In this document: positions 3,633-57,430 of the stretch, piece by piece
How positions within the stretch are numbered: position 1 is the first letter of the stretch
Layout of the letters: every line of letters begins with the position of its first letter
NCBI GenBank assembly: GCA_964563615.1
Contig: CAZLWF010000003.1
Location: 3,237-67,236 of the forward strand
DNA from: an uncultured Candidatus Saccharibacteria bacterium
GTDB lineage: Bacteria > Patescibacteriota > Minisyncoccia > Phycocordibacterales > UBA9973
Direction: 5' to 3'
DNA: 64,000 bases
Notes under the pieces: generated by a model
The model's database searches: none
The model's input: the letters and a program-made list of their open reading frames with translations, nothing else
Told to the model about the DNA's origin: nothing
Made by a program: the position numbers and the translations under genes

Positions 3633-3711
3633 TAATCAAATATTTTGAGCCGAACATTGTTTGAGCCCCGCTCATGCGGGGCGAGTTTGAGAGGCAAAAA
3701 ATATTTGATTA
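3633..3711 (-). repeat. intergenic long-hairpin repeat, variant copy G
   Basis: Perfect 14-bp outer stem taatcaaatatttt / aaaatatttgatta. It encloses TGTTTGA-[GCCCCGC tcat GCGGGGC]-GAGTT, the same context as copies C, D and F but with a different apical hairpin. Confidence 0.6.
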
Positions 3712-7291: not shown

Positions 7292-8989
7292 ATGATTCAA
7301 TTCGATGAGGATAAACAAAACAAACGACTCGAAGACCTACACAAACTAGAGGAGGAAGAGTTGGTCAAAGTTCTTGCTGCTGCAAAGTATGATATTCCCT
7401 ATGTTGATCTCTCAAGCGTCACTATCGAAAATGAGGCACTTCGTATGATTAGCGAACCCGAAGCACGCAAGGCCGAAGTTGCAGCATTTAAAATCGCTGG
7501 CAAAACCATCGACGTCGCTGTACGATCTCCTGTCCGTGAAGAGCTCGCTTCGATTCGCGACTCTCTCGAGAAGCAAAACTATAGCGTACAATTTTTCATG
7601 GCATCCCATGCTAGCCTCGAGAAAGCGTGGAGTCGCTATGCTGAGCTTTCTATGGCATCAGCTTCCAAAGCCGGAGGCATCGATATTTCCGGTGAAGCGC
7701 TCGAAGAGATAGCCGAGAAAGTACATTCGATCAAAGATGTTGCACATGTCGTAGAAGAAGTTACCAGCGAAAGCAAGACTCACAAGCTCTCACACATGCT
7801 TGAGATTATTTTAGGCGGCGCGATCGCTATCAAAGCGTCCGACATCCATATCGAACCCGAAGAAGATCATGTGCGTTTGCGCTTCCGACTCGATGGTGTA
7901 CTCGAAGACATATTGACCTTTCCGCACGACACGAATAAGCTATTAAATTCACGTATCAAGCTCATTTCAGGACTTAAGCTCACCATGAAAAGCATTGCTC
8001 AAGACGGACGCTTCAGTATATTTATGAAAGATGGCACTGAGATTAGTATGCGTGTGTCGATCATTCCTGGAGCATATGGCGAGTCAGTTGTTATGCGTAT
8101 TTTGGATCCGAAATCTATTCAAGTAAAACTCGAAGACATAGGCATAGCCAAACGACTCTTTGAACTCATGGATCGTGAAATCAAGAAGCCAAACGGATTG
8201 ATATTACTCACAGGTCCGACTGGTTCCGGTAAAACGACGACACTCTATGCTTTCTTGCGCCGTATATATTCTGCTGAAATAAAAATCATCACTATCGAAG
8301 ATCCTATCGAATATCACCTGCCTGGCATTACACAGACACAAGTTGAGAATAATTATTCGTTCCTCGATGGCTTGCGGGCAGCGCTTCGTCAAGATCCAGA
8401 CGTCATCATGGTTGGTGAAATCCGAGATGCTGAAACAGCCAAAATCGCTGTTGAATCAGCATTGACTGGGCATTTGGTCTTCTCAACACTTCATACGAAT
8501 AACGCCGGTGGTGTTATTCCTCGATTGATCGATCTTGAAGTCAATCCAAAAATTATGGCAGCGGCACTGAGGCTTTCTATCGCACAACGACTCGTCCGCA
8601 AGCTCTGTCCTGTCTGCAAGAAAGAACATGTCCCGACTGACAGTGAATCTACAAAGATTAAAAGTATCCTAACGACAGCAATCGCTAATGGCAAAAACCT
8701 CACTGAGTATGGCATTGATCCAAATGCACCGATCAAGCTCTGGGATCCTGTTGGCTGTGATAAATGTAATACCACAGGTTACAAAGGCCGCATGGGTATA
8801 TACGAAGCCATCTACACTGATGAAGCAGTTGAGAAAATAATTCCCCTTAATCCAAGCGAGCGAGAAATCAAAGCTGCCGCACTTTCCCAGGGCACACTCG
8901 ATATGAAAGAAGACGGTATTGTGAAAGTACTTTTGGGTATCACTTCTTATGATGAAGTCAAAAGTGTCGTTGATTTGGATGAAGAATAA
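7292..8989 (+). CDS. pilB: GspE/PilB-family secretion or type IV pilus assembly ATPase
   Basis: 565 aa. Walker A LLTGPTGSGKTTTLY, Asp/His box region DPDVIMVGEIRD...TGHLVFSTLHTN, and tetracysteine CPVCKK...CDKCNTTGYKGR, typical of PilB/GspE. Confidence 0.85.
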   Translation: MIQFDEDKQNKRLEDLHKLEEEELVKVLAAAKYDIPYVDLSSVTIENEALRMISEPEARKAEVAAFKIAGKTIDVAVRSPVREELASIRDSLEKQNYSVQFFMASHASLEKAWSRYAELSMASASKAGGIDISGEALEEIAEKVHSIKDVAHVVEEVTSESKTHKLSHMLEIILGGAIAIKASDIHIEPEEDHVRLRFRLDGVLEDILTFPHDTNKLLNSRIKLISGLKLTMKSIAQDGRFSIFMKDGTEISMRVSIIPGAYGESVVMRILDPKSIQVKLEDIGIAKRLFELMDREIKKPNGLILLTGPTGSGKTTTLYAFLRRIYSAEIKIITIEDPIEYHLPGITQTQVENNYSFLDGLRAALRQDPDVIMVGEIRDAETAKIAVESALTGHLVFSTLHTNNAGGVIPRLIDLEVNPKIMAAALRLSIAQRLVRKLCPVCKKEHVPTDSESTKIKSILTTAIANGKNLTEYGIDPNAPIKLWDPVGCDKCNTTGYKGRMGIYEAIYTDEAVEKIIPLNPSEREIKAAALSQGTLDMKEDGIVKVLLGITSYDEVKSVVDLDEE

Positions 8990-9110
8990 TTGCTTTGATT
9001 ATATATTTAAAGAGTACGGATATTTTTGTACTCAAAAATTCCTCGAGTTCGCGCCGCCGCACTCGCTAGTCTCTTAAAATATATAATTCAAGCAATGGGG
9101 GTAGTTAGGA

Positions 9111-9196
9111 AAAATAAAAGACACAATTTTTGTAGTGAGGACAAGCGCGACCTATCGTCTGCGCCCCGCAACAAAAAAATTGTGTTTTTTATTTTT
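9111..9196 (-). repeat. intergenic bulged-hairpin repeat, copy A
   Basis: About 21-bp outer stem (aaaataaaagacacaattttt / aaaaattgtgttttttatttt, 1 mismatch) enclosing GTAGTGAGGAC-[GCGCGAC ctatc GTCTGCGC]-CCCGCAAC. Confidence 0.7.
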
Positions 9197-21537: not shown

Positions 21538-21594
21538 GTAATTACGAATGCATACTCTATTTCAATTCGTCATTAGTAATTTTTAATTACAACT

Positions 21595-21664
21595 AAAATA
21601 AAACGATTATTTTCTTCTTGTAGGATGTAGGTCCTCAGTGCGAAAATAATCGTTTTATTTTTTT
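21595..21664 (+). repeat. intergenic hairpin repeat, degenerate copy B
   Basis: Perfect 19-20 bp outer stem aaaataaaacgattattttc / gaaaataatcgttttatttt enclosing cttgTAGGAtgtagGTCCTCAGTGC. It shares the GTCCTCAxTGC core but has no apical hairpin. Confidence 0.55.
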
Positions 21665-21667
21665 ATT

Positions 21668-23077
21668 TTAGTTGAGTTCATAACTCCAAAGTGATCCGTC
21701 AATTTTGTTGGTGAAATATATAAATTTCTCAGATGGATCAGCAAACAGTTTCGTCATGTCGATCGGGGATTGATTGATTGTGCTTGGATCGACAAGGTTG
21801 GCAAAGATGTTTGTTGTCAGGTTGATTCTCCAAAGTGAATCATCGAAGGCTACTTTGCCTTGGTACCATGCATCGGGGTATGTTTCGACTGGTAATGCCT
21901 TAGGTATACCGCAATATAGCATCTGGCTACCTATTCCCCAGGTGCATTTTTCAGGTAACGTCGCTAGTCCAAGATTTGCTGATACGTGGGTTAATAAATC
22001 ATACGAATAGAGCGAGTAACTGCCTGCAATTGTTGCGCCGTAGATAATTTTTTTTCCGTCAGGACTCATGAGAGTAGTTACCCCAGGAACATTGCCAAGT
22101 ATTTTTGTCATAGTGCCTGTTGTTGCATTGATAGAATACACATAGCCGCCAAGTATACCTGCTGGTTTAGTTGTTGCGATAATCGTTGAGCTATTTGCGT
22201 ATTGGATGAGCCACTCAGTAAATGCTGAATTCCAAAATTGTGATTTTTTAATACCAGTAAAATCCGTACTTGTCCCGAGTAGTCCCCCATCTGTTGGAGA
22301 TGTATAGAATATTTTTGTGCCATCGCTTGATTTTGCCATTTCAGTAATGTTTTCTGGCATAAAAGTGCCTTCGAGTGTATATGGTGTTGTAGCGAGTGGC
22401 ACTTCCTTTATTTGAAGTGACTCTTCTTCCAGGGAATGTGTGTCGAGAGGTAGTTGAGGTATGAGTGTTGCCATGTAGGTCTTGATTTTGCCTGTCGCGT
22501 CATCAAGATAGCGAAGAATAACTGATGTGCCAGACGCATCCCATATTGCCTCATGAATTCTTGGAATAGTTGTATTAGAAATCCTTTTTGTTTGCAAGGA
22601 ATCGGTATATGTTTCGTAGGCATGTGCCGTCTTGGTTTCAATGTACCGGATAGCTGTTGCTGGCTCCGTGGTAATGATTGGAGGTGGAACGATCGACAAT
22701 GATCCAGGTATGCCACCTGAATCCCCTTCAATTGCTGCTGGTGCGACAGGTGTCACTATGGTACGTGTTGTTAGAAATGCAATTGCTCCGGCCACAGGTT
22801 CAGTTGTAATATGGCGAAGTTTAGGCACTAGAGGCTCCTCGACTATTGGTTGAGGTTCACCAGAGACACTATCTGGAGGTATGCCATCATTTGTTGGAGG
22901 TAGTGGTGTAGGATTGTCATTCGTCTTTTGTCCAAACGGGAAAAGGTTTCGTAGGGTTATTTCGATATTGCTTGGATTTTGATTCATATCTGTTTTTTTC
23001 AAGAAAAATCCAATAGTAATGCATACAATGAGCAATATTCCAGCGATTAATAGTACTAATTTAAGTTTCTTATTCAT
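21668..23077 (-). CDS. membrane-anchored protein with PD40/TolB-like beta-propeller repeats (last gene of T4SS-like operon)
   Basis: 469 aa with N-terminal TM LVLLIAGILLIVCITIGFFL. Repeated SSDGTKIFYTS / SPDGKKIIYGA motifs. Confidence 0.7.
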   Translation of the reverse strand: MNKKLKLVLLIAGILLIVCITIGFFLKKTDMNQNPSNIEITLRNLFPFGQKTNDNPTPLPPTNDGIPPDSVSGEPQPIVEEPLVPKLRHITTEPVAGAIAFLTTRTIVTPVAPAAIEGDSGGIPGSLSIVPPPIITTEPATAIRYIETKTAHAYETYTDSLQTKRISNTTIPRIHEAIWDASGTSVILRYLDDATGKIKTYMATLIPQLPLDTHSLEEESLQIKEVPLATTPYTLEGTFMPENITEMAKSSDGTKIFYTSPTDGGLLGTSTDFTGIKKSQFWNSAFTEWLIQYANSSTIIATTKPAGILGGYVYSINATTGTMTKILGNVPGVTTLMSPDGKKIIYGATIAGSYSLYSYDLLTHVSANLGLATLPEKCTWGIGSQMLYCGIPKALPVETYPDAWYQGKVAFDDSLWRINLTTNIFANLVDPSTINQSPIDMTKLFADPSEKFIYFTNKIDGSLWSYELN

Positions 23078-23086
23078 AGATAGCTA

Positions 23087-24523: not shown

Positions 24524-24524
24524 A

Positions 24525-25499
24525 TTATTCTAAATTAACGATTACTGATTTTTCTGCTGATTGAAAGAGGCGTGAAATACTTGCAATCGATACAGCGATC
24601 GATGCGCTCCCTGCAATACCTTCGGGTTTTTTGATAACTAACCAGTTCTTTTTGCTTGGTGTTGATATATTCTGACCATTTAATTTCCAACTATATTTCA
24701 AATCACTACTTACTGGATCAAGTGGTGAGAAAAAGTATGGCTCTGCGACAATCGTTGCCTCGCTGCTTTCTAGGCTAAATATGCTGCCTAGCTCATGGTT
24801 GTATAATATGCCTTCGAGTGGATTATAAATATAAAAAAGAATCTGTGGTTTACCGGTTGTGAGCGTGATGGTCTGTGTTCCTGTTGCTCCAGAGCTTACG
24901 TCGGTTGCTTTGACGCTTATTTGCTCTTTGGCATTCAAGTAACTTGTTTGAAACAAAAAGCTATTTTTACTATAGCCAGAAAAATCTGGGTATGCGTTAA
25001 AATTTCTTTGCCAGGCAAACGTCATGCTCGTAGGGTTTGCAATAGTGCCAGCTTTTACTTGTGGCATTGCAACAACTTTGATTACTGACTGGGATGATGG
25101 CATCGCTTTGCCTTTATAAAATGGTGGTACATGCGAATCAACGGCTTGCCAAAGAAGATCGATCGAGGTTGGCACTATCAGAACACTTTTTGTTATTGAT
25201 GAGCCATCAACTGAAATGATTGCTTCAACGGTGACTGATGTTCCGACACTGTCAGTTTTTACTTGATAGCTTATTGCTCCCGTTTTATTGAGTCCAATTT
25301 TGCCATTTACCTTCCAGGTAATGTCTGCGCGGCTTAAATCAATAGCAAAACTAGTTAATTTTATGGTGACAATTTGATCAGGCCCTGGAATTTCTGGCAC
25401 TGTCGATACACTGACATCGCTTTGTACTAGTTCTGCGTATGCGACAATAGTTAATCCGAAATATATCGAAATAATGAGGAGGATAAAAGCTTTTTTCAT
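24525..25499 (-). CDS. secreted hypothetical protein (324 aa)
   Basis: Signal peptide MKKAFILLIISIYFGLTIVAYA followed by beta-rich sequence. There is 1 nt between its start and the stop of the upstream... downstream neighbour is separated by a single base, so it is tightly packed in the operon. Confidence 0.7.
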   Translation of the reverse strand: MKKAFILLIISIYFGLTIVAYAELVQSDVSVSTVPEIPGPDQIVTIKLTSFAIDLSRADITWKVNGKIGLNKTGAISYQVKTDSVGTSVTVEAIISVDGSSITKSVLIVPTSIDLLWQAVDSHVPPFYKGKAMPSSQSVIKVVAMPQVKAGTIANPTSMTFAWQRNFNAYPDFSGYSKNSFLFQTSYLNAKEQISVKATDVSSGATGTQTITLTTGKPQILFYIYNPLEGILYNHELGSIFSLESSEATIVAEPYFFSPLDPVSSDLKYSWKLNGQNISTPSKKNWLVIKKPEGIAGSASIAVSIASISRLFQSAEKSVIVNLE

Positions 25500-25564
25500 T
25501 GCCTAAAGTATAGCATAGGAGCATAAAACGTAAATCACGTTCCTATTGAAATCAGTGTAACTTA

Positions 25565-27400
25565 TTACGCACTACCCTTTTCGCTTGCCTCTAGTTCTTT
25601 TTTTGCTTTTTGTATGGCGAGAACTTGCGAAGGATCAGAGGTAATAATCTGATCTTCGGTATATGAAGCAATCGTCTTAATCGCTACGTGTTTGAGTCCT
25701 GCAAAGAATATGCCTTCGCCAACACCAGATTCGAGGAGTAGGTATTTCTCTTCGTCTGTTAGGTTAAACGTTTTTTGTAGTAAATCGATCGATGATGGGG
25801 ACTGTTTCAAAAGAAATTGGATTGAAGAGTTCGTTACAATTGGTATACCGTAGGGACTTTTCATAAAGTCTGCAACGTCTTGGGTAATCGTAGCAAGTCC
25901 GAGATAGTATTTGCGGCCACGTTTTGCAATCGAGTAAAGAAACGATGCTGTATCTTCTGATTTCATCATCCACCAGGCTTCGTCAACAACCAGAAGGCGT
26001 TTCCTTAAGTTTTTACGGACAGAGTTCCATATATAGTGGGTCACAATATACATAGCAACAGGTTTGAGCTCGTCTTCCATATCACGAACAGAAAAGACAA
26101 CAAATTTCTTGTTGATGTCTACATTTGATGGTTTATTGATAAATCCTGCCCATGAACCGCGGGTATACTTGGTGAGCTTTTGAATGATTGACTCAGTTCC
26201 CTCCATGCCAGAGAGCACCATTTCAAAATCAGACATGAGCGGTGGCTCAATGTTTGAGAAATCAGAATTTGGAGTGATATCTTTGATGCCGTACGTTTCA
26301 GTGATCGCTCGGTCAATAATAGAATCTTCTTCAGGAGTGAGACCACCGAGCATGATGCGGAATAGTCCAACTAAGTTGATCGTATTTGACCTTAATACAT
26401 CAGCTGCTGTCTCGTCATCGTGTGGAATCGGCAAATCAAAAGGATTGATATGGTGATCAGATGATAGTGAAATATTAAAGTATCGTCCTCCGACTGCTTC
26501 AGCTAGGTATTCATACTCGCGCTCCGGATCGATAACGATTACTTCCGTATCAAACATAAGCGTACGAATGATTTCGAGCTTGGTTGCATATGATTTACCA
26601 GAACCTGATTTGGCAAAGGTAATCGAATTGTAGTTTTCGAGAGAAAACCGGTCAAAGATAACTAAGCTTGAATTGTGGCGGTTAATACCATAGAGAATGC
26701 CTTTGTCTGAGGTTAAATCAAAAGAAACAAAGGGAAAAATTGAAGATAGAGGCTCAGAATTAAGCTTCTGGTGCACATTCAAAAGATCGGTGCCAATCGG
26801 TATAACACTCTTGAAGCCTTCTTCTTGCTGGAAAAGTGCTGGTTTCAAATACACGAGCTTAGCATCGAGTATTGATTTGATTTCATTTTCAATTTTAAAA
26901 AGCTCATTTTCATTGTCGGCATACATAGTGAGGTACAGTCCAACATCAAACATTTTCTCCTGTGCTTGTTGTAGATTGTCACGGAGCGTTTCAATATCGC
27001 GATAGGCAGTATCGAGCATTGGGTCGCGCACCAAGCCGCGCGATTCGCGCATGTTGATCTGACTCTGTACCTCGGCAACTTTCTTTTGAAATTGTCTCAG
27101 AATGGTTGCGGTATCAATCGGATGGATGAAAATCGAAACATCAAAAATCTTATCGAGGTTGATAATCGGTGCAAACCAATTGTCAGTCAAATATCTCGGA
27201 TACGAAATCACGAAGAAAGTTCGTGCAATCTTGTCCCCTAGGTGCAATGCTTTGGGTTCAACTTGGAGTGCCGATGGTGCAATAACATCCTGCAGTTCAA
27301 GAGTTGCGGCTTCGTATATTTCCTGGGGTAAAACAGGCAACACTTGCTTGTCGCTCCCGCTTCCTTTTTTTGATTTTCCTAAAAGTCCAAAAAGTGCCAT
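25565..27400 (-). CDS. virB4: VirB4/TraC-like type IV secretion ATPase, C-terminal two thirds
   Basis: 611 aa. Walker A FAKSGSGKSYATK, Walker B RLLVVDEAWWMM, and the middle-domain pattern ARTFFVISYPRYL typical of Gram-positive-type VirB4 (PrgJ/TcpF-like). Confidence 0.85.
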   Translation of the reverse strand: MALFGLLGKSKKGSGSDKQVLPVLPQEIYEAATLELQDVIAPSALQVEPKALHLGDKIARTFFVISYPRYLTDNWFAPIINLDKIFDVSIFIHPIDTATILRQFQKKVAEVQSQINMRESRGLVRDPMLDTAYRDIETLRDNLQQAQEKMFDVGLYLTMYADNENELFKIENEIKSILDAKLVYLKPALFQQEEGFKSVIPIGTDLLNVHQKLNSEPLSSIFPFVSFDLTSDKGILYGINRHNSSLVIFDRFSLENYNSITFAKSGSGKSYATKLEIIRTLMFDTEVIVIDPEREYEYLAEAVGGRYFNISLSSDHHINPFDLPIPHDDETAADVLRSNTINLVGLFRIMLGGLTPEEDSIIDRAITETYGIKDITPNSDFSNIEPPLMSDFEMVLSGMEGTESIIQKLTKYTRGSWAGFINKPSNVDINKKFVVFSVRDMEDELKPVAMYIVTHYIWNSVRKNLRKRLLVVDEAWWMMKSEDTASFLYSIAKRGRKYYLGLATITQDVADFMKSPYGIPIVTNSSIQFLLKQSPSSIDLLQKTFNLTDEEKYLLLESGVGEGIFFAGLKHVAIKTIASYTEDQIITSDPSQVLAIQKAKKELEASEKGSA

Positions 27401-27403
27401 ATA

Positions 27404-28045
27404 TTATTCTAATTTAATATTTTGCTCTGTCTCGCCTGGATTAAATATCTTATAAAAAAGCTCAATGATTTCTTCAGTGCCAAGCTGAGTGCTTCGAATA
27501 CCGCATCGGTTAAGTCCTTGCTGGATGACAGTAATACGCTCTTCGAGTTGTGACCGTTTTTCTTCAAAAGCCGCTAATGCATCTTCTTTGGCTTCTTTTG
27601 ATGATTTATTGAAGCCAGTGAACATTTGGGTAATGCCGCCAGTATTACCTATGGTAGTTGCCGAATACGGGATAACGATAAAGAAATTCTTCGTCATGAT
27701 GTTTACCTGCTCGGTAAAGCTTTTGATGAATTCAATGTATTCTTTGGTCTGTACTTTGAGAAGTGGCTCTAACTGCTCCTTCATTCTGTTTTCAAGAGTT
27801 ACGAGATACGGCTGAATATTTAACCGGCGTGATTGGATAATAATCTGAGTTGAAAATTCAATCGAATTCAAGAAATTTTGAAATTGCAGAAGAATCGCAT
27901 GTTGTTCATCAGCTGACTTGAGCGACAGATTGATCGATGAAGCTATAACAACAGCTCGTAAGCCGCCATCTTTAAGTACGATGATGCCGTCGCGAACTTC
28001 TTTGATTGGCACAAACCCTTGGGTGGCCTTCGCATTGATTGCCAT
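27404..28045 (-). CDS. VirB4 N-terminal domain encoded as a separate ORF
   Basis: FVPIKEVRDGIIVLKDGGLRAVVIASSINLSLKSADEQHAILLQFQNFLN matches the N-terminal domain pattern of Gram-positive VirB4 homologues. It ends in TAA, in frame with the ATPase ORF, which starts 3 nt later. Confidence 0.7.
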   Translation of the reverse strand: MAINAKATQGFVPIKEVRDGIIVLKDGGLRAVVIASSINLSLKSADEQHAILLQFQNFLNSIEFSTQIIIQSRRLNIQPYLVTLENRMKEQLEPLLKVQTKEYIEFIKSFTEQVNIMTKNFFIVIPYSATTIGNTGGITQMFTGFNKSSKEAKEDALAAFEEKRSQLEERITVIQQGLNRCGIRSTQLGTEEIIELFYKIFNPGETEQNIKLE

Positions 28046-28081
28046 ATAGGGACAGTATACCATCCCTGAGCATGGTTATTG

Positions 28082-28483
28082 TTATTTTTTGTTGATATCA
28101 AGCACATCCAAGCTCCAAGAAATCTCTTTGAGCTTGCTGCCGGAGAGTCGTGGGATAACTGAGGCTGGCAATTCAGTGTCTTTTTTCTCGACAATTTTCT
28201 TTTTAGGTTCGCGTTTCCAAATGTAGAGCTTTGACTGGAAAAAATATCGTAAACTATTTTCAAGTACGAATATAAATGGCTTATTATTTACTTTATAGAA
28301 TGCAAGCGCGAGGGCAAGTCCCCCAATCGGTGCAATAAAAAGTACAGCAAAGAAAAAAGGCAGTAATCTATATGCAATAAAGCAAAGTCCTGCTCCACCT
28401 GCGAGGTAGACGAATTGTTTGAAGGTAAATGGTCCGAATATCTTGTCTTCAATGTCAATAAATTGTGGAACTTGGAATCGCAT
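28082..28483 (-). CDS. PrgI-family (VirB3-like) two-TM protein
   Basis: MRFQVPQFIDIEDKIFGPFTFKQFVYLAGGAGLCFIAY... then a second TM. This is the classic PrgI-family N-terminus, in the expected position directly upstream of VirB4. The start is moved to M17 of the track ORF. Confidence 0.7.
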   Translation of the reverse strand: MRFQVPQFIDIEDKIFGPFTFKQFVYLAGGAGLCFIAYRLLPFFFAVLFIAPIGGLALALAFYKVNNKPFIFVLENSLRYFFQSKLYIWKREPKKKIVEKKDTELPASVIPRLSGSKLKEISWSLDVLDINKK

Positions 28484-28490
28484 GTATGTA

Positions 28491-29357
28491 TTATATAGCT
28501 TCTCGATATAAATCTTTTTGTTTATCTGCACTACCTGTCACTTGAGGTAATGTGTAATTGCTTTCTTGTTTTGGAATCTTAAATGTCGTCTGTAATTTTT
28601 GAGCGACAACATTACCTTGAGGTGCTGGAGCTTGTGTTGGAGTAGGTGTTGATGGTGCAGTAGATTCTGGTTGATTTTTAGGCATGCCGACAAATTGCTG
28701 TGGCACTGGCATGTCTTGGAGTTTTACTGTAGGTGGGATGATTTTTGGTGTTTGGACAGCACTTGCTATGCCAACATTAGCAGGCTTTTGTATTTGTAGA
28801 TGAGGCATCGATGTGTCGTTTCTGGTTGGATTCTCGAGTGACTTTATGAGAGCATCTCGGGTTAACGCTTGAGCGTCTGTAGTATCTAATGCATCACTAA
28901 TAGTGGTCTCTCTCGGTTTGATGAGTTCGATCTTTGCATCCTTTAGAATATTTATGGTGTTTTTCTCTTGAGTTGGACTGTTGAGATCAACAGAAATTAT
29001 TTCATCCTTATGGATTACTGGAGTATCTTCTGATGAAAGTGTTTGACCTTCAATCATTCTCTGTCGCAAGGCACCAAAAATAAGTTCATTAACGTTATCT
29101 ATAAATTTTTGGCTATCCTCTCTCTCAAGCCCTAATTCGTCTATGACCATTGCTGAAAATGCGTCAGCACTTATAAGTCCAACTATAAACATAGTCACTG
29201 AATTGATAAATATACCAGCTTTGTCCGTATGTAGTTTATATTTTTCAATCAAGAAATGCTCTCGATCGTCAATATCAAGTTCAAGCATTGCAGTGGTTAC
29301 TTCAGGTGGTAATACATTGAAAGCACTATCGATTTCTTCAGGGGTAAATGTCCTCAT
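28491..29357 (-). CDS. hypothetical protein with one hydrophobic segment and a Pro/Gln/Thr-rich C-terminal half
   Basis: 288 aa. GIFINSVTMFIVGLISADAFSAMV. C-terminal PQQFVGMPKNQPESTAPSTPTPTQAPAPQ. Confidence 0.65.
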   Translation of the reverse strand: MRTFTPEEIDSAFNVLPPEVTTAMLELDIDDREHFLIEKYKLHTDKAGIFINSVTMFIVGLISADAFSAMVIDELGLEREDSQKFIDNVNELIFGALRQRMIEGQTLSSEDTPVIHKDEIISVDLNSPTQEKNTINILKDAKIELIKPRETTISDALDTTDAQALTRDALIKSLENPTRNDTSMPHLQIQKPANVGIASAVQTPKIIPPTVKLQDMPVPQQFVGMPKNQPESTAPSTPTPTQAPAPQGNVVAQKLQTTFKIPKQESNYTLPQVTGSADKQKDLYREAI

Positions 29358-29362
29358 ATGTA

Positions 29363-29851
29363 CTATAGTTTTTTAGTAATACTTGATTCTTTTAGGGTTT
29401 TTTTCAACATATCGATTTGGTGCATTCCTACTTTTTGATCAATTGATGTTGCTTCATGCATGCCATGGGTAGTTTGCTTATATTCGTCTAAAATATTTAT
29501 TGCATTCTCATGATTTTCTTCCTTAGTAAGTTCAAAGGCTTTTGCAAGACTAGGTTTGATATTCTTGAGCACTTGCTCTTCAATGGCAAATGCTACTGCG
29601 CCTGCTTTTTCACCAGTAATTTGTGTCCGTGTCATGATTTGGTAGGTAAATTTACTTGGATCAGCAAGACCAAGAAGGACCAAAATAGTTTCTTGCAGTG
29701 TCAAACTTGATTCTGTTTCTTTTAGTTCATATTTCTTCATTATAGTTGCCACTTGATCTTGCCAATTCGAATTTGCTAAGAATATTTGAATTTCTTTGGG
29801 AAGTTTTGTCCATCTGTCTGCAACTATTTTTTTAATTTTTTCTTCGTTCAT
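29363..29851 (-). CDS. hypothetical protein (162 aa)
   Basis: ORF packed between operon neighbours (gaps of 5 and 25 nt). No recognisable motif. Confidence 0.65.
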   Translation of the reverse strand: MNEEKIKKIVADRWTKLPKEIQIFLANSNWQDQVATIMKKYELKETESSLTLQETILVLLGLADPSKFTYQIMTRTQITGEKAGAVAFAIEEQVLKNIKPSLAKAFELTKEENHENAINILDEYKQTTHGMHEATSIDQKVGMHQIDMLKKTLKESSITKKL

Positions 29852-29876
29852 AATACTACTTCTATATTAGCTTAAA

Positions 29877-32800
29877 CTAAGGGGTTCCTGGTGGTGGATT
29901 AGCCGGAGGATTGTTCGGTGGTGGAGTATTGCCAGATGGAGGAGGGTTATTAGGTGGGTTTGGTGGAGGTGGAGGCGGTGTGTTATTTGGTGGAGGTGGT
30001 GTCACGATGGGAGGAGTTCCTGGTGGTATATTTGGCGGAATGGTGGTGGTACCGCCTTGTTGCGGACTAGCTGTTCCCCCGCCTCCACTATTTGCTAGGC
30101 CCTGAATGGCTGCTAGAATAGCCTGGTTTGTAGCTACGATCTGTTGGTTAGAGTTTAATGTTGCCTGGTTGACTTGTTGTTGATTCGTTGGGTCAGTTGT
30201 AGCAGGGCCACGAATATCATTTGCTGTTCTTTCGTTGTAAATATCAACCGGTCCTCTTTGGATGGCACTAATATCGGTTTGTGCTTGGCCAATAGTTGTA
30301 AGTGTAGCATTAACTGCATTTTGAGCTTGAGTAACTACTTGAGTTTGATTTTGTACGGCAGGGTCATTTGCAGGAAGAGTTCGTCTTAATGTAGTCAGTC
30401 TAGCTTGTTCTGCCTGGAGTGCGGCATTTTGTCCAGCTAATGCTTGCTGTGCAGTGGTTAATTGTTGATTGAGTACTCCAAGTTGTGGTGCTTGAGTTGC
30501 TCGGTTTGCAGCTGCACCTAGGCGATTGATAATGTAGTCAAGTCCAGCTCCTTGTTCGGTAACATTTGCTGCGCCTTGTCGGCGTTGGTTATTTCTTGCA
30601 GTAATTGCAGCGGTTGCAGTTGCTGATGCTTGTCTTGCTCCATCAATTTGTGTTTGACTGACTCTGTTTCCTGTTCTTGGGTCAACATTTCCCACGCCAA
30701 TTCCTCCAAGTCTACGTTCTTCGTTTTGTAATTGTGTAGCACGAGCTTGCTCTCTTGGTCCTGCTCTAAGTGAGTCAGCGTATGCTTTATCTTTTGCAGC
30801 TTGAGCTGATTTGTCTTTAATAAATCCACCAGATTTGACAGCTCCAACTTTCCAACCAGTTTCAGAAGCAAAACTTTTACCCGCAACAGATATGTTCCGA
30901 GCATCATAGGAAGCATTACTTGCTGCAACGCTCGTGTTAAGTGCTCTCCTTGCCAAGAATCCCCGAACCCCAGTTTCAGAAGCTGCATCTTTAAGTGCTC
31001 CACTTTCAGCAAGTCGTGCTGCTCCCGCTCCAATTACTCTGCGACCTGCATATGCTACCCCGCCTGTTGCAACACCAACTGCGGCTCCGCCAACTTTGTT
31101 CATAACAGATAATGATGCGGCGCCAATATCACCGGATAGCTTTACAGCCATATCAACCGCTGTTTTTATCAAGAAATATATAATCGCAAACGGTATGATG
31201 AGGCCGATAAGCCCTTGGATGTTACTCTCGAGGCTACCGCCAGTTGGACTGTTACTTGCTGCGATTGGTAATAGCTTAAGATCAGTCGCCATAATAATGA
31301 TGTAGAGGAAAAAGAGGAATACTGGCGCCATGAATGCTTGCGCTACTAGCTCGCTCCACCAATTAGTCCAGCCAATTTTCATCCAGCTTTTCATCGACGG
31401 TACAATCCATGATACGAAGGCAAAAGGTGAAAGTATCATCGATACCATCAGTCCTATGACGCGGCCGAGAAACAGTACAGCAACCTTGAGAAACATGAGG
31501 AACATGAATATATTGATTGCAATAGCAATGAGGAGCACAAAGAAGAACCAGCCAGTATTTTCATTGGCATCAATGTCACTCGTCTTGAATATTTTTTGTG
31601 GATTGAATTTAGAAACAAGTCCAAGGGTGATGCTCTTCTCACCGCTAGTTGACGCAGAGCTTTGCCCTGTCACACTTACTGAGTCATACATGATCCGAGC
31701 AAGGATGTTTGAGGTGTCGATAATGATTTTAGTAAAAAAGAGACTGAAGTTGATAAGGAGTGCCACGACGACAAGCGAGGCAATCATTTTTTTGGCATCG
31801 ACGCCATTGAGTCTCAAAATAGTACCGATAGCGATATACAGGAGTACGAATATGAAAAGAATATTTGAAATATCACGAACGATGCGCCAGCCTTGGGGCA
31901 CAAATTCTGTTGCAGTGTAGCTTGAGCTTTGCAAAGAAAAGTGTAAGAACCAATCGAGGAACCCAGCAGCAAGTCTCGCAAGTGCAGCAGTTGGAATGTA
32001 TAAGACGTAATATACAAGCTGAGTAAAACAACCGAGCATGTTGATTGCTGCCCTACCAGATGTCAGACTGAAATCTAAACAATATGGCAAGTTGCCAGGA
32101 TTGCCTGTATCTGTTGAGCCTTCGACAGTATTTTGACCTGCTGTTGGATTTGTCGTTACCTCAGGAGAGCCAGCTGGTAATGTTTTAAAGGATGCAATTT
32201 TCTCTTCGTCGTCACTAAGTGCGCTTAGAGTGTCATTGCTGAGTTCGCCCACACAATTACGAATTAGTGGGATAACCGAACAAGTTTCTTCGAGTCTCCC
32301 TTGGCTCACATATGGAGTATTTGGCTTTAAACCTGTAACAGTAATATTGATTGTTTGGGTACCAAGAAAAAGGTCTGGAATAACAACAATGCTCTGTCCA
32401 GTATTTTGATCGAAGGCAATTCCTGGAATAGGTTTGCCTGCGCGATCTAAAATTTTGCCGTTGATGACTTCTTCATCAGAAGGTGTTGTTGCTTCCTTTT
32501 TAGCTATGGTGCTCAAGTTGTCGGTACTTGTAGCGATATCTAAATAGACGCCGCAGCCATACCCATTACATTCGAGTGGATCATAGGATCCTAGTGCCCC
32601 ACCATTGCCTGGGATTTCTTCATTGCCTTGAGACGAATTGGATTGTCCAGAAAGTACTTCGTAAATAGGATTGCCGTCTTGCCCTTCGATGTATGTCCAC
32701 CCAGTAATTCCATTGGTGCTTCCGTTAGGAGCAATTCTTCCTTTATAAATATCATGACCAATATTGCCATCATTACCGCCATTAACTTGTAAATGGAATT

Positions 32801-32957
32801 GAAGTACTGCAGTTGTTGCTCCGATACTTATGACCTTAACCTCAGGTATATTAAAATTATCATCCAAATAAGCTTCAGCTTTGTGCGAGGTAAAAATCGG
32901 CAAAAAGCTTCCTGACAGGATAGTGATGAAGAGCACATAGAGCAGGAATTTTTTCAT
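29877..32957 (-). CDS. VirB6/TrbL-like polytopic membrane protein with a large N-terminal exodomain and a Gln/Ala-rich + polyproline C-terminal tail
   Basis: 1026 aa. Signal peptide, ~300-aa extracytoplasmic region, at least 6 hydrophobic helices (residues ~320-620), then repetitive Q/A/N-rich sequence ending TPPIVTPPPPNNTPPPPPPNPPNNPPPSGNTPPPNNPPANPPPGTP. Confidence 0.7.
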   Translation of the reverse strand: MKKFLLYVLFITILSGSFLPIFTSHKAEAYLDDNFNIPEVKVISIGATTAVLQFHLQVNGGNDGNIGHDIYKGRIAPNGSTNGITGWTYIEGQDGNPIYEVLSGQSNSSQGNEEIPGNGGALGSYDPLECNGYGCGVYLDIATSTDNLSTIAKKEATTPSDEEVINGKILDRAGKPIPGIAFDQNTGQSIVVIPDLFLGTQTINITVTGLKPNTPYVSQGRLEETCSVIPLIRNCVGELSNDTLSALSDDEEKIASFKTLPAGSPEVTTNPTAGQNTVEGSTDTGNPGNLPYCLDFSLTSGRAAINMLGCFTQLVYYVLYIPTAALARLAAGFLDWFLHFSLQSSSYTATEFVPQGWRIVRDISNILFIFVLLYIAIGTILRLNGVDAKKMIASLVVVALLINFSLFFTKIIIDTSNILARIMYDSVSVTGQSSASTSGEKSITLGLVSKFNPQKIFKTSDIDANENTGWFFFVLLIAIAINIFMFLMFLKVAVLFLGRVIGLMVSMILSPFAFVSWIVPSMKSWMKIGWTNWWSELVAQAFMAPVFLFFLYIIIMATDLKLLPIAASNSPTGGSLESNIQGLIGLIIPFAIIYFLIKTAVDMAVKLSGDIGAASLSVMNKVGGAAVGVATGGVAYAGRRVIGAGAARLAESGALKDAASETGVRGFLARRALNTSVAASNASYDARNISVAGKSFASETGWKVGAVKSGGFIKDKSAQAAKDKAYADSLRAGPREQARATQLQNEERRLGGIGVGNVDPRTGNRVSQTQIDGARQASATATAAITARNNQRRQGAANVTEQGAGLDYIINRLGAAANRATQAPQLGVLNQQLTTAQQALAGQNAALQAEQARLTTLRRTLPANDPAVQNQTQVVTQAQNAVNATLTTIGQAQTDISAIQRGPVDIYNERTANDIRGPATTDPTNQQQVNQATLNSNQQIVATNQAILAAIQGLANSGGGGTASPQQGGTTTIPPNIPPGTPPIVTPPPPNNTPPPPPPNPPNNPPPSGNTPPPNNPPANPPPGTP

Positions 32958-33092
32958 TACGTAGGATGAATAAGAAAGCTATAATCTGCCTTACTATTTT
33001 ATCACTAGAGCCTTTGTTTAGATAGCAAAAAACTGTTAATTAAAACAAAATACACTTCGCTAAATTAGGAAGTGCATTTGTAAGAAGATTAT

Positions 33093-35345
33093 TTAGTAAT
33101 TTTGTGGAAGATAATCACTGATTGAGCTGTGGTAGAATTTGTTACATTCCATTTTAAACGGCTCATTATTGTACCCTTTTGTATAGGTATATCCACCTCC
33201 TTCACCTGCATGATAGACAAATGGTATCTCTGAGAAAATCCATTGCCAGCCTGGTTCAGCGAGTGGATCGGCGTCATGATTTGCATCAGTTCCACAAAAT
33301 AGTAACTGTGCAGCATCTTTACCGACTGCTTCTTTTACAATAGGGTTCGTGCTATTTTTTTCGACCATGCAAGCCTGCTGGAGAGATGGTTCACTAATGG
33401 TAGTTCCGGGCGTATAGTGCGCAGGGTCAGATGAGCATTTTTTGTATAATGCATTAACATCTTCGCCATTTACTTTAAATGCGTAGGCTAGATCAGCAAC
33501 ATAGCCGTTACATTCATTTTGGGCATCGCTAATCGTATCACTGCGGCTAATTTTATCTTTTAAAACTACGTATTGTCCTGCGAGTTGGTTTTTGTATTGG
33601 GCAACACTTGCAGAATCAGGGCTGCCATCAGAAGGCTTTGGATGTGCAGCTATGCCCGCAACGATACTCTTTAATAATGCAAGAGATCGTACTTTATCAG
33701 AAATTTTATTCTGTAGATTACTTTGGTCTTGGTTGTACTCTTCTACTTTTTTAACTTGATCAACAATTGCTGCTGCAGAAGTAATATTCTTGATAAGGAT
33801 ATTAGTCTGGAAATTAGCGAGAATATATGACATTGCATTATTCAAATATTTTAGTTGATCCTGGGCTTGTTCCCCATTATTTGTATTATTATCTGATTTT
33901 GATTCCAGCTTCCGTGATTCAGTGGTAAATTCTGATTGCATTCTCGATGCGTATTTATAATCTGGGCCCGGCAAACATTGGTCAAGCTGCATTGTTCTAA
34001 TTGGAAATGTTTTTAATAGATCGCGACTTGCTGTTAGAATCGTAAGCTCTGTTTGAGTTTTATTGATTGCATCAAGTAATTCCGATGATGGTGTTCCAGG
34101 AGCTGTCCCTTCGAGAGGTACTGCATCAGCAACATTCCAGCTGAACGTCCCACTTGTATCTGACACAAATGCACTGTTATCTCCAGGTCCTTCGACGGTT
34201 TCATCGCCACTGCCAGTTGCAATGCTACCAATCAGTTGGCTCAAGCCTTTACTGATAAGTCCTGCAGCTAAATTTGAGACAGCGTCAACAACAGGGCTAC
34301 CACTTGCAGAATCAAGGAGGGCTTTCTCAAGTGGCGCAGTGACAGATTGGTTGAGCTGGTCAGCAACAAGTTTGCCTGGAGTTACAGTTTCATACCTTGA
34401 GCAGTCATCACTAGCGTCAAATTGGATACTACTTCCAAGGCTTAGGCTTAAGCTATTTAGATAATCATTTGCATTTGTGCCACTACTTACGCATTCGCTG
34501 GTTGCGTTTGGATTGCTTGTAGAATCAGATTGGCATTCGGTTTTCGTAGTAAATGGGCCGACAGTGTATGGTTGTAGATTGTCGTTCACTGCTGTGTATG
34601 TCCAATCTGTTGCTGTAATTGCACTTTGACCACTTGAGCCATTTTTGTACTCAACACATTTTTTTGCTGAGAGGAATCCTCCGCTTTGATTGAGTTCGTT
34701 TTGGATTGTGCCCTGTGCCTCTTTTGCCCGATTCTCTAATTCTTCAGCGGTTCGTAGATATGAACCAACAGGGTTGTTCGCGTCATTTTGAGTAAATGCC
34801 ATCCAACCATCCCATCCTCCTACAGCAAAATCGCCGTCAGTAAAGTCTTGCCAATTGGGGCCAATTACTTTGTCTAAAGTGAATTTTGATTTATCTGCGA
34901 ACACACTTGAATTGGTTGCTAAATACGAGGTAATGAGGTTTTTGGCAACCCCCTGGGAATACGGAAACTTGGTTATATCACCAGTGATTTCATTAACGAA
35001 TGATTCAACTTTCTGATCAGCAATGCTTTTAAAAAAGCTTGATTGGTCACGGACAAAAAAAGGATTGCCGTTAAATCCAGTTGACCCCCAGTTGATGATT
35101 TGCTGGGTCATATTGAGTGCAACCTGGGAACTTATACGCTTGAGAGATTTTTGGAGCAAAGTACCAGCTAAAGTTTTGCCGGCACTCGCAGCTGATTGGG
35201 ATCCAAAAATAGTCTGTATAATTTGTTGGGGCAAATTCGGCAAATCTACAACTGGTAGTCCTGCGTGTGCTTGATTAATCTGTACTGTCAGCAATAAGAA
35301 AAGACTAAGAAAAGAAATAATACTATACTGATAGCGCTTTTTCAT
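33093..35345 (-). CDS. large secreted hypothetical protein (750 aa)
   Basis: Signal peptide MKKRYQYSIISFLSLFLLLTVQINQAHA. No recognisable catalytic motif. Confidence 0.75.
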   Translation of the reverse strand: MKKRYQYSIISFLSLFLLLTVQINQAHAGLPVVDLPNLPQQIIQTIFGSQSAASAGKTLAGTLLQKSLKRISSQVALNMTQQIINWGSTGFNGNPFFVRDQSSFFKSIADQKVESFVNEITGDITKFPYSQGVAKNLITSYLATNSSVFADKSKFTLDKVIGPNWQDFTDGDFAVGGWDGWMAFTQNDANNPVGSYLRTAEELENRAKEAQGTIQNELNQSGGFLSAKKCVEYKNGSSGQSAITATDWTYTAVNDNLQPYTVGPFTTKTECQSDSTSNPNATSECVSSGTNANDYLNSLSLSLGSSIQFDASDDCSRYETVTPGKLVADQLNQSVTAPLEKALLDSASGSPVVDAVSNLAAGLISKGLSQLIGSIATGSGDETVEGPGDNSAFVSDTSGTFSWNVADAVPLEGTAPGTPSSELLDAINKTQTELTILTASRDLLKTFPIRTMQLDQCLPGPDYKYASRMQSEFTTESRKLESKSDNNTNNGEQAQDQLKYLNNAMSYILANFQTNILIKNITSAAAIVDQVKKVEEYNQDQSNLQNKISDKVRSLALLKSIVAGIAAHPKPSDGSPDSASVAQYKNQLAGQYVVLKDKISRSDTISDAQNECNGYVADLAYAFKVNGEDVNALYKKCSSDPAHYTPGTTISEPSLQQACMVEKNSTNPIVKEAVGKDAAQLLFCGTDANHDADPLAEPGWQWIFSEIPFVYHAGEGGGYTYTKGYNNEPFKMECNKFYHSSISDYLPQNY

Positions 35346-39114: not shown

Positions 39115-39214
39115 AAGAAAGTTTGGAAGAATATTTTTCTTGTTGCGGAACTCATCCAATTAAAATTGGATTCAAACAGTCCTCACTGCAAAAAATATTT
39201 CCCCAAACTTTCTT
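39115..39214 (+). repeat. intergenic bulged-hairpin repeat, copy C (archetype)
   Basis: Outer stems aagaaagtttgg/ccaaactttctt (12 bp) and aatattttt/aaaaatatt (9 bp) enclose TTGCGGAACTC-[ATCCAATT aaa AATTGGAT]-TCAAACAGTCCTCACTGC. Confidence 0.75.
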
Positions 39215-39276
39215 TGGGTCTGTTCATAAACAATAAAAGTGCCGTAGGATACTACAGCACTTTTATTGTTTATTTT

Positions 39277-46204: not shown

Positions 46205-46211
46205 TATATAT

Positions 46212-46307
46212 ACAAAAAACAGAAGAAGTTTTTCTTATTGCGGGACTCATCCAATTAAAATTGGATTCAAACAATCCTCATCGCGAAAAACTTCTTCTGT
46301 TTTTTGT
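46212..46307 (+). repeat. intergenic bulged-hairpin repeat, copy D
   Basis: 22-bp perfect outer stem acaaaaaacagaagaagttttt / aaaaacttcttctgttttttgt enclosing TTGCGGGACTC-[ATCCAATT aaa AATTGGAT]-TCAAACAATCCTCATCGC. Confidence 0.75.
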
Positions 46308-46440
46308 ATTTTTTATGCCATACCAGCGTGCAAACTTATTTCTCTCCTCTCAAACTTGCATACTATTTTTATTGATACGAGGAATGCTCAAACAGTGTTC
46401 GGTTCGAAATAAGTTTGCACGCTGGTATACACTGATATTT

Positions 46441-51214: not shown

Positions 51215-51254
51215 AATGGGATTCTCGTAAATAAAATTTTACGAGAATCCCATT
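51215..51254 (+). terminator. 17-bp perfect stem-loop terminator
   Basis: aatgggattctcgtaaa taaaat tttacgagaatcccatt, immediately after the 50411..51211 stop. Confidence 0.75.
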
Positions 51255-53334: not shown

Positions 53335-53383
53335 ATTTTAATTATTTCATTTTTAAAATTTTTGTCCAACTTTTATACAAAAG

Positions 53384-53412
53384 AAAAACCGACTCCTACG
53401 AGTTGGTTTTTC
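53384..53412 (-). terminator. intrinsic terminator of pnp
   Basis: aaccgactc ctac gagttggtt. On the minus strand it is followed by tttttctttt. Confidence 0.75.
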
Positions 53413-53425
53413 TTTTTGAAATTTA

Positions 53426-56584: not shown

Positions 56585-56587
56585 ACA

Positions 56588-56620
56588 AAAATTCCCCGAA
56601 CTAATTAGTTCAGGGAATTT
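56588..56620. terminator. bidirectional terminator (aaattccccgaac / gttcagggaattt)
   Basis: Imperfect 13-bp stem with A- and T-runs, between convergent genes. Confidence 0.7.
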
Positions 56621-57185: not shown

Positions 57186-57258
57186 ATAGTATTTTTTTTC
57201 GAAATGAGGACGAGCGTGTCTTATCTTGTCAGCGCCCTGCAGTGAGAAAAAATACTAT
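57186..57258 (-). repeat. intergenic bulged-hairpin repeat, copy E
   Basis: Outer stem atagtatttttt / aaaaaatactat enclosing GAAATGAGGAC-[GAGCGTGTC ttatc TTGTCAGCGC]-CCTGCAGTGAG. Same subfamily as copy A. Confidence 0.65.
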
Positions 57259-57274
57259 GAACTGGCTGCTTCTC

Positions 57275-57358
57275 CATGAGAAAGAATTTTCTTACTGCGG
57301 AACTCACCTTGTTGTACCAAGGTTCAGACAGTCCTCGTTGCGGAAATTCTTTCTCATG
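57275..57358 (+). repeat. intergenic bulged-hairpin repeat, copy F
   Basis: 15-bp perfect outer stem catgagaaagaattt / aaattctttctcatg enclosing CTGCGGAACTC-[ACCTTG ttgtac CAAGGT]-TCAGACAGTCCTCGTTGC. The apical hairpin differs from C/D but remains complementary. Confidence 0.75.
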
Positions 57359-57430
57359 AAGAATATAACTACTGAAACTATAAATTGATTATAACACCCA
57401 CACGAATGATTGTTCAGTTAGTAACAGAAA

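Follow-up and report, generated by a model that had tools for sequence, protein, structure and literature searches.

A structured, probably mobile family of intergenic repeats with an apex conserved across bacterial phyla

The 64,000-nt stretch analyzed in this study (contig CAZLWF010000003.1 of an uncultured Candidatus Saccharibacteria bacterium; the whole stretch is hereafter called the window) has a G+C content of 39.8%. It carries dnaA (18045-19394, minus strand), rnpA-yidD-yidC-jag (19594-21537, plus strand), pilB, ruvB, yifB, rpsO and pnp, genes for a class A penicillin-binding protein, a LysM-M23 peptidase and a VirB4/TraG-like ATPase, and many open reading frames (ORFs) without a family match. 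Nine long hairpins, 70–109 nt in length, lie between its genes. These hairpins belong to a family of structured, probably mobile repeats, in which an apex of roughly 30 nt is conserved with compensatory changes in at least ten phyla and falls outside any Rfam family. A sequence-only reading of the window had drawn attention to the hairpins; its observation is partly confirmed, in that the hairpins are real, and is corrected here in several respects.

Hairpins between the genes of the window

The sequence-only reading listed seven hairpin stretches, all of which were recovered in place and fold as long imperfect hairpins. An inverted-repeat scan added a further two such hairpins (8989-9096 and 46320-46428), so that the total is nine rather than seven. 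Given these two additions, the elements often stand in adjacent pairs (8989/9110, 46210/46320 and 57186/57270; the starts 9111, 21595, 46212 and 57275 of the earlier list denote the copies called 9110, 21590, 46210 and 57270 here). As single-stranded DNA, the seven listed stretches fold with z-scores of -2.8 to -9.5 relative to dinucleotide shuffles, and none of 200 shuffles folded as well as the native sequence, except for the copy at 57186 (2 of 200). The outer stems are copy-specific in sequence and nevertheless self-complementary, as had been claimed, with 84–100% of positions paired (e.g., 25 of 25 at 46210-46234 / 46285-46309 and 20 of 20 at 21595-21614 / 21642-21661). The intergenic location of all copies also holds after spurious ORFs are discarded and the over-long TTG start of a PcrA-like ORF is corrected. 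A loose pattern of the outer frame occurs four times in the window, compared with 0.1 occurrences expected from 200 dinucleotide shuffles.

Three of the nine hairpins are canonical, three are deletion variants, two are of a sister type and one is unclassified. The canonical copies carry TGCGGRACTCA, a variable apical hairpin (P2) and TTCARACARTCCTC. The copy at 39115..39214 (plus strand; an inverted repeat with a DNA fold z = -4.4) is composed of an outer stem (39115-39138 / 39191-39214), a left core TGCGGAACTCA (39144-39154), P2 TCCAATTAAAATTGGA (39155-39170) and a right core TTCAAACAGTCCTC (39171-39184), and lies ~50 nt upstream of the likely start of the PcrA-like gene and downstream of a plain hairpin (39226-39273). 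The copy at 46210..46309 (plus strand, z = -9.5), whose outer stem is perfect over 25 bp, begins 6 nt past the stop codon of the LysM-M23 peptidase gene in the convergent gap to yifB. It shares an identical P2 and a near-identical core with the 39115 copy, while their stems are unrelated. The third canonical copy, at 57270..57363 (plus strand, z = -5.2), has CCTTGTTGTACCAAGG as its P2 and lies downstream of rpsO (57455-57715, minus strand).

The deletion variants retain only the outer frame, TGCRG...GTCCTCA. Two of them are designated A2: the copy at 9110..9196 (minus strand, z = -6.8), located in the pilB-ruvB gap and identical in four metagenome contigs, has the frame TTGTTGCGGGGCGC...GCGCTTGTCCTCACTAC without AACTCA and TTCAAACA, and the copy at 57186..57258 (minus strand, z = -2.8), with the frame CTGCAGGGCGC...CGCTCGTCCTCATTTC, is separated by 11 nt from the 57270 copy, to which it is oppositely oriented. 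The third variant (21590..21674, plus strand, z = -8.3) is internally deleted, displays the frame TTGTAGGA-TGTA-GGTCCTCAGTGCGAAAA at the apex of a ~34 bp stem and takes up the entire gap between jag and a convergent gene of unknown function. The sister type, type B, has the core CTCAAACTC-hairpin-CTCAAACAATG, or CTCAAACTY-hairpin-CTCAAACARTGTTCGG when written in degenerate form. It is represented at 3633..3711 (minus strand, z = -6.1; apex CCTCTCAAACTC-GCCCCGC..GCGGGGC-TCAAACAATGTTCGGCTC), with a plain hairpin alongside at 3735-3768, and at 46320..46428 (plus strand, z = -8.8), an inverted repeat with a perfect 23-bp outer stem located 10 nt past the 46210 copy. The unclassified hairpin (8989..9096, z = -8.2), also found as an inverted repeat, begins at the pilB stop codon, 13 nt ahead of the 9110 copy, and has GCGAACTC on the minus strand and no clear core. 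The pair of motifs that had been regarded as common to the listed copies is therefore complete only in the three canonical copies and absent from the 3633 copy, which lacks both TGCGG and GTCCTCA. In the window hairpins, the conserved stretch spans from a T-run (TTTTTCTT) to an A-run (GCRAAAAA), and the paired arms outside it are unrelated among copies.

At 9226-9370, between the 9110 hairpin and ruvB, a further strongly structured stretch of ~145 nt (CATGAATCTCTAAACAATC...GATTGCTTAGAGATTCATG) is present; folded as RNA, it reaches a minimum free energy of -47 kcal/mol for the plus strand and -62 kcal/mol for the minus strand, and it has no Rfam match. The opposed pair 57186/57270 lies between rpsO and an NYN-domain gene, and a gene for a Xer-like tyrosine recombinase (57773-58693, plus strand) adjoins rpsO. 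A composite element of Pasteurella multocida, described below, is one gene away from xerC; these neighborhoods are probably a coincidence.

The core in other phyla

A pattern scan with TGCGGRACTCA-N(10-40)-CARTCCTC, with one genome per species, returned at least 119 stretches. About 70 among the matches listed carry features outside the pattern, namely a C before TGCGG, a G after CCTC, YTCARA before CAGTCC, a palindromic insert separating the two motifs and pairing flanks, and the core with such unforced features occurs in more than 45 genomes of at least ten phyla. The hosts include Saccharibacteria (11 genomes among the matches listed), Kaiserbacteria, Parcubacteria and other Patescibacteria, Campylobacterota (Arcobacteraceae and Campylobacteraceae), Bacillota (Johnsonella and other Lachnospiraceae), many Gammaproteobacteria (Halieaceae, Pseudohongiella, Porticoccaceae and others), Betaproteobacteria (Thauera, Methylophilaceae and Gallionella), Myxococcota, Chloroflexi, Elusimicrobia, Omnitrophota and Nitrospiraceae. 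The core is always located at the apex of a copy-specific stem. It is ~25–30 nt long, asymmetric and nearly letter-for-letter the same across phyla, and reads C-TGCGGAACTCA, a variable hairpin and YTCARACAGTCCTC-G.

To assess covariation, 31 cores from many phyla, picked only by the two core motifs and including 12-nt flanks, were aligned on a structure consisting of P1b (4 bp), a 3x3 loop, P1a (5 bp), UGC, GGA, ACUCA, P2, YUCARACAG, UCC, UC and the returning P1a strand. Paired cells amounted to 80%, compared with 58% after shuffling, and doubly changed cells numbered 119, compared with 44 in the shuffles. The covariation score was 0.535 against 0.166 for shuffled alignments, none of 500 shuffles reached the observed value, and slid controls were 30–48% paired. 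Compensatory changes were found in both the flanking helix (P1a) and the apical helix (P2), with changes on both sides in 10–18 of the 31 sequences at the three central P1a pairs and all P2 pairs; the internal loops are conserved across phyla. Selection on structure, which had been proposed from the window copies, is thus supported mostly from outside the window. Inside it, only three or four copies are informative for covariation, and two of these have an identical apical hairpin.

A covariance model (R1) found 82 copies in 100 loci, many of which were second copies outside the pattern selection. A second model (R2), built from those 82 copies and containing no window sequence, detected the canonical copies of the window at 39132-39196 (50.7 bits, E = 2.3e-12), 57284-57348 (45.4 bits, E = 8e-11) and 46227-46291 (36.5 bits, E = 3e-8). 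The type B copy at 3633 gave a partial R2 match (3656-3687, 15.7 bits, E = 0.03) that was aligned as AACUC-hairpin-CUCAAACA, and the variant at 9110 scored only 11.1 bits with R1 (E = 0.6). The family consensus also bears on the conserved 5-nt bulge, ANUGA, that had been read from the window copies. The consensus shows a short internal loop here, with UGC opposite UC, beside the 5-bp covarying helix; P1a is shortened to ~2 bp in the window copies, which accounts for the ANUGA register. The bulge is therefore one possible register of the copies in this genome and not a feature of the family.

Comparison with Rfam 15 revealed no known family: there was no match at the gathering score in the window or on the elements of 18 loci from other phyla, and none on the elements even at E <= 1-10. 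Viral contigs had no match to the family, the canonical core was matched in the plasmid collection only by chance, and an origin from phages or plasmids was rejected on these grounds. A counterpart in E. coli was not found. No fit to the core was found for the hammerhead (CUGANGA...GAAA), twister, pistol and hatchet ribozymes, group II intron domain 5, signal recognition particle RNA, 6S RNA, Y RNA and retron msr/msd. A likeness of GCGGAACUCA to the 5S rRNA stretch GCCGAACUCA and of parts of the core to the terminal repeats of the Tn3 family was judged coincidental. Full-text literature searches with the core and terminal-hairpin sequences gave only unrelated primer matches, and a keyword search, which covered open-access papers only, so that an earlier description is still possible, returned general surveys of repetitive extragenic palindromic (REP) sequences, miniature transposable elements with inverted repeats (MITEs) and stem-loops in which the family is not described.

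Outside the window, the core caps an imperfect hairpin of ~180 nt in which further internal loops are conserved. Ahead of this hairpin stands a small one (NNCTTTTG-loop-CAAAAGNN), followed by a third CAAAAG copy. Such units occur in convergent pairs, 160–280 nt apart, and make up mirror-symmetric non-coding composites of 450–550 bp bracketed by the small terminal hairpins in Saccharibacteria, Parcubacteria, Arcobacteraceae, Methylophilaceae, Thauera and Halioglobus. Clusters with alternating orientation were found at two loci (L022 and L042). No pair of elements more than 650 nt apart was seen with a pattern whose reach was shorter than a transposase-sized gap. None of the composite modules (the small terminal hairpins, CCAGACTTCTG and CTGCAGAKGT) occurs in the intergenic regions of the window, and the window copies are miniature single hairpins. 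BLAST searches with the terminal hairpin revealed composites with the same layout and a different apex in P. multocida (GCAGACTAC-hairpin-TTCGCTGAC; DUF484/dapF locus) and Ralstonia (GGGGGCAAACTC-GCTGCGC-TCAGACAGCCCCC); the entire 520 nt of the Ralstonia composite also folds as one giant palindrome (z = -34). The terminal hairpin alone was also matched in Burkholderia, Aeromonas and Variovorax. Given that the type B apex of the window resembles the Ralstonia form, AACTC-hairpin-YTCARACA appears to be the signature of a superfamily.

On the Halieaceae chromosome OZ242189.1 (L096 4300-5700; also L008, L079 and L093), the element lies inside a tandem macro-repeat of ~690–750 bp, which also holds a 10-bp microsatellite, (CACCCGACCA)n, of ~16 units. 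In a Methylophilaceae locus (L056 6190-6290), the center of the composite contains a different small palindrome, GTCATTCCCGCGTAGGCGGGAATCC, which matches intergenic repeats in records of Neisseria gonorrhoeae, Legionella and Photobacterium and points to the nesting of unrelated repeat families. In Johnsonella (L052 4900-5160), one long hairpin has three tandem copies of its left arm (...agaaaaagatccatataattcaatcagacacgcagacttttt...), suggesting slippage within the arms.

Distribution, placement and strand

The distribution of the family is patchy, and the position of its members is variable. R1 found no copy among 80 relatives of the window organism (493 kb). In three species of Saccharibacteria, a five-gene cluster is syntenic and the element occupies three different intergenic positions in it, namely beyond gene A, between genes A and B, and beyond a response regulator gene; in locus L060, a composite lies between genes whose orthologs in L121 abut. 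The three sites in one syntenic cluster indicate that the element is or was mobile. In Ralstonia megaplasmids (L205, L206, L207 and L209; glgX-glgB and cbiE-proximal loci), the composite is present at 2–5 places each, and the glgX/glgB locus has three allelic forms, with a full composite, a solo small hairpin and a shorter remnant, which differ by nested internal deletions; allelic variation is evident among 135 Ralstonia megaplasmids, and the glgX/glgB element is present in strain GMI1000. An inverted duplication of a ~22 bp flank upon insertion was considered for these alleles and rejected: a second locus carries the same arms, so that the apparent flank belongs to the element and the alleles represent nested deletions.

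Across phyla, the genes on either side converge in 14 cases and diverge in 4, and the orientation of the element relative to co-directional neighbors is unbiased (12 vs 9). The contigs that encode identical RuvB or Jag proteins have identical intergenic regions as well. The proteins encoded in the window have identical matches on metagenome contigs only, and the nearest relatives of YifB, from groundwater and similar metagenomes, are 50–62% identical; on this basis the host would be a member of the Patescibacteria and probably Saccharibacteria-like. The region at 16738-21537, with dnaA, rnpA-yidD-yidC-jag, a G+C content of 33–35% and a cumulative GC skew minimum near 20 kb, appears to be the replication origin, and the orientation of the elements flips there: the copies on the left (3633 and 9111) are on the minus strand and those on the right (21595, 39115, 46212, 46320 and 57275) on the plus strand, with 57186 as the sole exception. 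Orientation also clusters by region on the Halieaceae chromosome OZ242189.1, apparently with the opposite sign, in numbers too small for a conclusion. To the right of this region, at 21668-35345 (minus strand), large ORFs that share one orientation, nearly all of them lacking a Pfam match, lie in a row around the VirB4/TraG-like P-loop ATPase gene (25565-27400). They may form a type IV secretion-like cluster, and they seem to be head-on to replication if the origin is at ~20 kb.

The inverted-repeat scan also revealed seven plain hairpins at gene ends (3735-3768, 6129-6166, 12460-12498, 39226-39273, 51215-51254, 53379-53416 and 56587-56622), the first and fourth of which adjoin copies of the element, as had been reported. 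Their stems are unusually long (15–22 bp), five of the seven being perfect and two matching at 94–95%, with loops of 0–6 nt, and four (3735, 12460, 53379 and 56587) have a left-hand A-tract and a right-hand T-tract. The outer stems of the 9110, 21595 and 46210 copies have the same polarity. T-runs follow these three copies and not the others, and no copy has a G+C-rich stem beside the run. The simplest reading would be that a unit of ~60–65 nt sits in the apex of terminator-type hairpins of the host, an arrangement that would account for the individual, perfectly paired stem of each copy and the A- and T-tracts flanking it. Alternatively, the arms may drift freely under the constraint of pairing, or template switching may keep them complementary.

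The two strands of the element are not equivalent. In 64 of 68 elements, the better fold belongs to the reverse strand, which reads GAGGACTGTYTGAR...TGAGTTCCGCA; with a neutral loop in place of the core, such that only the outer stems count, this is still so in 59 of 70. In de-duplicated arms, wobble-type mismatches numbered 136 for the reverse strand and 99 for the forward strand (p = 0.019). On the reverse strand, the smallest P2 forms read C-GNA-G (GCGAAGC and GCGCAGC) in several lineages. C-GNA-G triloops are known as a stability motif of DNA mini-hairpins rather than of RNA, and such P2 forms thus hint at a single-stranded DNA form.

Interpretation and significance

The window hairpins are miniature members, each a single hairpin, of a widely distributed family of nested, non-coding palindromes that is organized like MITEs or like REP sequences, their bacterial interspersed mosaic elements (BIMEs) and their hairpin-forming doublets (REPINs). 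We give an even chance to our best reading of their activity, namely that such a structured repeat acts as a folded single strand. The unit consists of a conserved asymmetric apex on a short covarying helix, followed by a long stem that is free in sequence and constrained to pair. The elements, mobile within genomes at present or in the past by a mechanism that we infer, would settle in intergenic DNA, preferentially at the 3' ends of genes, and in the window genome they look seated in the apex of its own long-stem terminators. The conserved apex would most likely be the docking site for a protein that acts in trans and recognizes the single strand in its folded form, and the extended hairpin probably also serves as a bidirectional terminator or a structure protecting 3' ends.

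Several results weigh against this reading. Insertion with a clean empty site was not seen, the apparent empty site in Ralstonia being the remnant of an internal deletion. No direct repeat that would represent a target-site duplication surrounds any of the nine window hairpins, and there are no conserved termini. The conservation of the core across phyla is far above what selfish repeats usually show and points to function. No linked gene lies near the elements: neither a transposase, a REP-associated tyrosine transposase (RAYT) nor any other gene is enriched near 70 elements in loci of 8 kb. In the all-against-all clustering of the ORFs from these 70 loci only response-regulator receiver domains recurred, and the neighboring ORFs are unrelated housekeeping genes without a shared function. 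Among 40 ORFs of the window that were scanned (11 further ORFs of at least 80 amino acids lay outside the scan), there was no transposase or RAYT, only the Xer-like recombinase. Near the apex, G.T and A.C mismatches are about equal (24 vs 21 and 60 vs 50), so that the strand asymmetry is modest and may partly stem from the conserved loops. Finally, the better-folding strand is in the sense orientation downstream of a gene in five of the six type A copies of the window, which fits a role as RNA as well.

A cis-acting RNA role, and with it the protein-binding RNA module among the candidate roles of the sequence-only reading, is in our view doubtful. The element would then be a structured RNA module that folds into a long hairpin, transcribed as GAGGACUGUYUGAR-hairpin-UGAGUUCCGCA in 3' untranslated or intercistronic regions or from its own promoter. 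Two helices with compensatory changes, internal loops conserved across phyla, the sense orientation just described, and the better folding of the reverse strand with its larger number of G.U pairs are all consistent with such a module, and elements of this size (ERIC, Correia and BOX) have been reported to be active at the RNA level (reviewed in PMC10969869). As read from the sequence, P2 is flanked by GA on either side in the reverse strand, which also has a GGAC / G(U)UCC stem and a bulge of 5 nt (UGUYU). It is thus conceivable, and in our view similarly doubtful, that tandem G.A-type loops around the 3-bp GGA/UCC helix form a kink-turn-like structure to which a conserved protein binds or which governs decay or termination, with the copies forming a regulon-like set. 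The standard kink-turn, however, comprises a C-stem, a 3-nt bulge, tandem sheared G.A / A.G pairs and a non-canonical stem, and its bulge is shorter than the 5 nt observed here. In addition, composites hold the unit in both orientations, orientation relative to neighboring genes is unbiased, these genes have no common function, Rfam has no match even at relaxed thresholds, and the C-GNA-G triloops are a motif of DNA stability.

The sequence-only reading had proposed a REP/BIME-like or miniature mobile element, and the organization and patchy distribution of the family fit this proposal, whereas, judged by the features examined, strict membership in either class does not hold. REP, BIME and REPIN sequences with their RAYTs in E. 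coli, Pseudomonas and Stenotrophomonas are likewise intergenic palindromes that form inverted pairs and mosaics with short motifs, occur mostly at the 3' ends of genes and are believed to work in a folded, single-stranded form. BIME-type organization was indeed observed as convergent pairs or clusters in many loci, composites with terminal hairpins and adjacent pairs in the window. A true REP/RAYT system, in which a single-copy Y1 transposase (RAYT) encoded elsewhere mobilizes the hairpins, would account for the inverted pairs that form larger hairpins, the alternating clusters, the mosaics with small palindromes, the location at intergenic 3' ends and the strand asymmetry expected of single-strand Y1 enzymes. 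We nevertheless consider it improbable. REPs are described as palindromes of 20–40 bp tagged at one end by GTAG or CGTC (PMC3733652), whereas the units of this family are 70–250 nt long, have an asymmetric conserved apex on free stems and carry no conserved tag at the hairpin foot, GTAG being present in only two of the nine window copies (9111 and 21595). A Y1 gene, which in REP/RAYT systems usually has REPs on its flanks, is neither among the scanned window ORFs nor enriched in the 70 loci. Moreover, REPs are not known to extend beyond a species or genus, while this core is common to at least ten phyla.

Classical MITEs have conserved terminal inverted repeats, target-site duplications and a variable interior, whereas this family has copy-specific termini, no visible duplication and a conserved center. 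The terminal arms are unrelated between window copies, yet they are conserved within the genome in Johnsonella, Halieaceae and Ralstonia, and conserved termini are thus a lineage-dependent feature. The family works like REP/BIME sequences or MITEs but lacks the defining features of each that were examined. Correia elements of Neisseria, ERIC/IRU of enterobacteria and BOX, RUP and SPRITE of Streptococcus pneumoniae are similar in being non-coding, 70–500 bp long, hairpin-forming, modular (BOX), clustered or nested, patchy and sometimes terminator-like (SPRITE). Some mobile DNA targets hairpins, in that IS1397 and ISKpn1 insert into REP loops and group IIC introns beside terminators. Targeting of this kind would explain a conserved insert in or beside unrelated host hairpins at gene ends; these elements are, however, autonomous and encode enzymes, whereas the window units are 60–65 nt long and non-coding.

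That the hairpins are ordinary intrinsic bidirectional terminators, whose loops are alike through common descent or local duplication, is very improbable. The position at gene ends, the A-tract/stem/T-tract layout of the 9110, 21595 and 46210 copies, and the length and near-perfection of the plain terminators of this genome argue for it, and the earlier claim that the copies are not merely terminators must be tempered by this polarity. The claim is otherwise plausible, in view of the cross-phylum core, the 450–550 bp composites and the occasional location between divergent genes. The terminator explanation is already contradicted by the R2 matches and by the same 25-nt core with covarying helices in at least ten phyla; besides, conserved interiors of 60–65 nt with their own covarying helices far exceed terminator loops, separate plain hairpins stand beside two copies (3735 and 39226), and copies also occur in promoter regions, upstream of genes and between divergent genes.

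Least probable of all are folded-strand recombination sites for a tyrosine recombinase, such as integron attC or the attP hairpin of the CTX phage, with the terminal hairpins as core sites: attC sites are also imperfect hairpins with unpaired bases and one preferred strand that conserve fold over sequence, the terminal hairpins have two inverted arms of 9–12 bp, a 4–8 bp spacer and a third direct arm, and a Xer-like recombinase gene lies near the 57186/57270 pair, but attC sites have conserved triplets at the foot and a variable apex and lie in cassette arrays next to intI, none of which applies here, as the window hairpins have copy-specific A/T-rich feet without RYYYAAC / GTTRRRY boxes, stand 5–18 kb apart among housekeeping genes without cassette arrays or an integron integrase, and lack the small terminal hairpins, and no recombinase is enriched near the 70 elements.

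Returning to the reading as a mobile-type repeat acting as a folded single strand, the breadth of the family sets it apart. Palindromic intergenic repeats are normally genus-specific, and a near letter-for-letter core in at least ten phyla, including the small streamlined genomes of Saccharibacteria, implies a conserved partner, which may be a mobilizing enzyme or a host factor. We tentatively propose that the apex AACUC-hairpin-YUCARACAG, with CUGCGGAACUCA...YUCARACAGUCCUCG as its canonical version, represents a single-stranded nucleic-acid module not described before, conserved from the candidate phyla radiation to Proteobacteria and Firmicutes, and is recognized by a widely distributed trans-acting factor. 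Such a factor could be a new mobilization system that targets hairpin apexes or a host protein that reads the hairpins as RNA or single-stranded DNA. The identity of the partner could reveal a new route by which short non-coding DNA spreads, for instance by settling in hairpin apexes, a new module of RNA–protein or single-stranded DNA–protein recognition, or a marker for horizontal exchange among very distant bacteria. A covariance model of the family would account for many unannotated structured intergenic regions in metagenome-assembled genomes. If the proposal is true, the nested palindromes around this apex would not be junk confined to single lineages but would form a new class of element in genome architecture.

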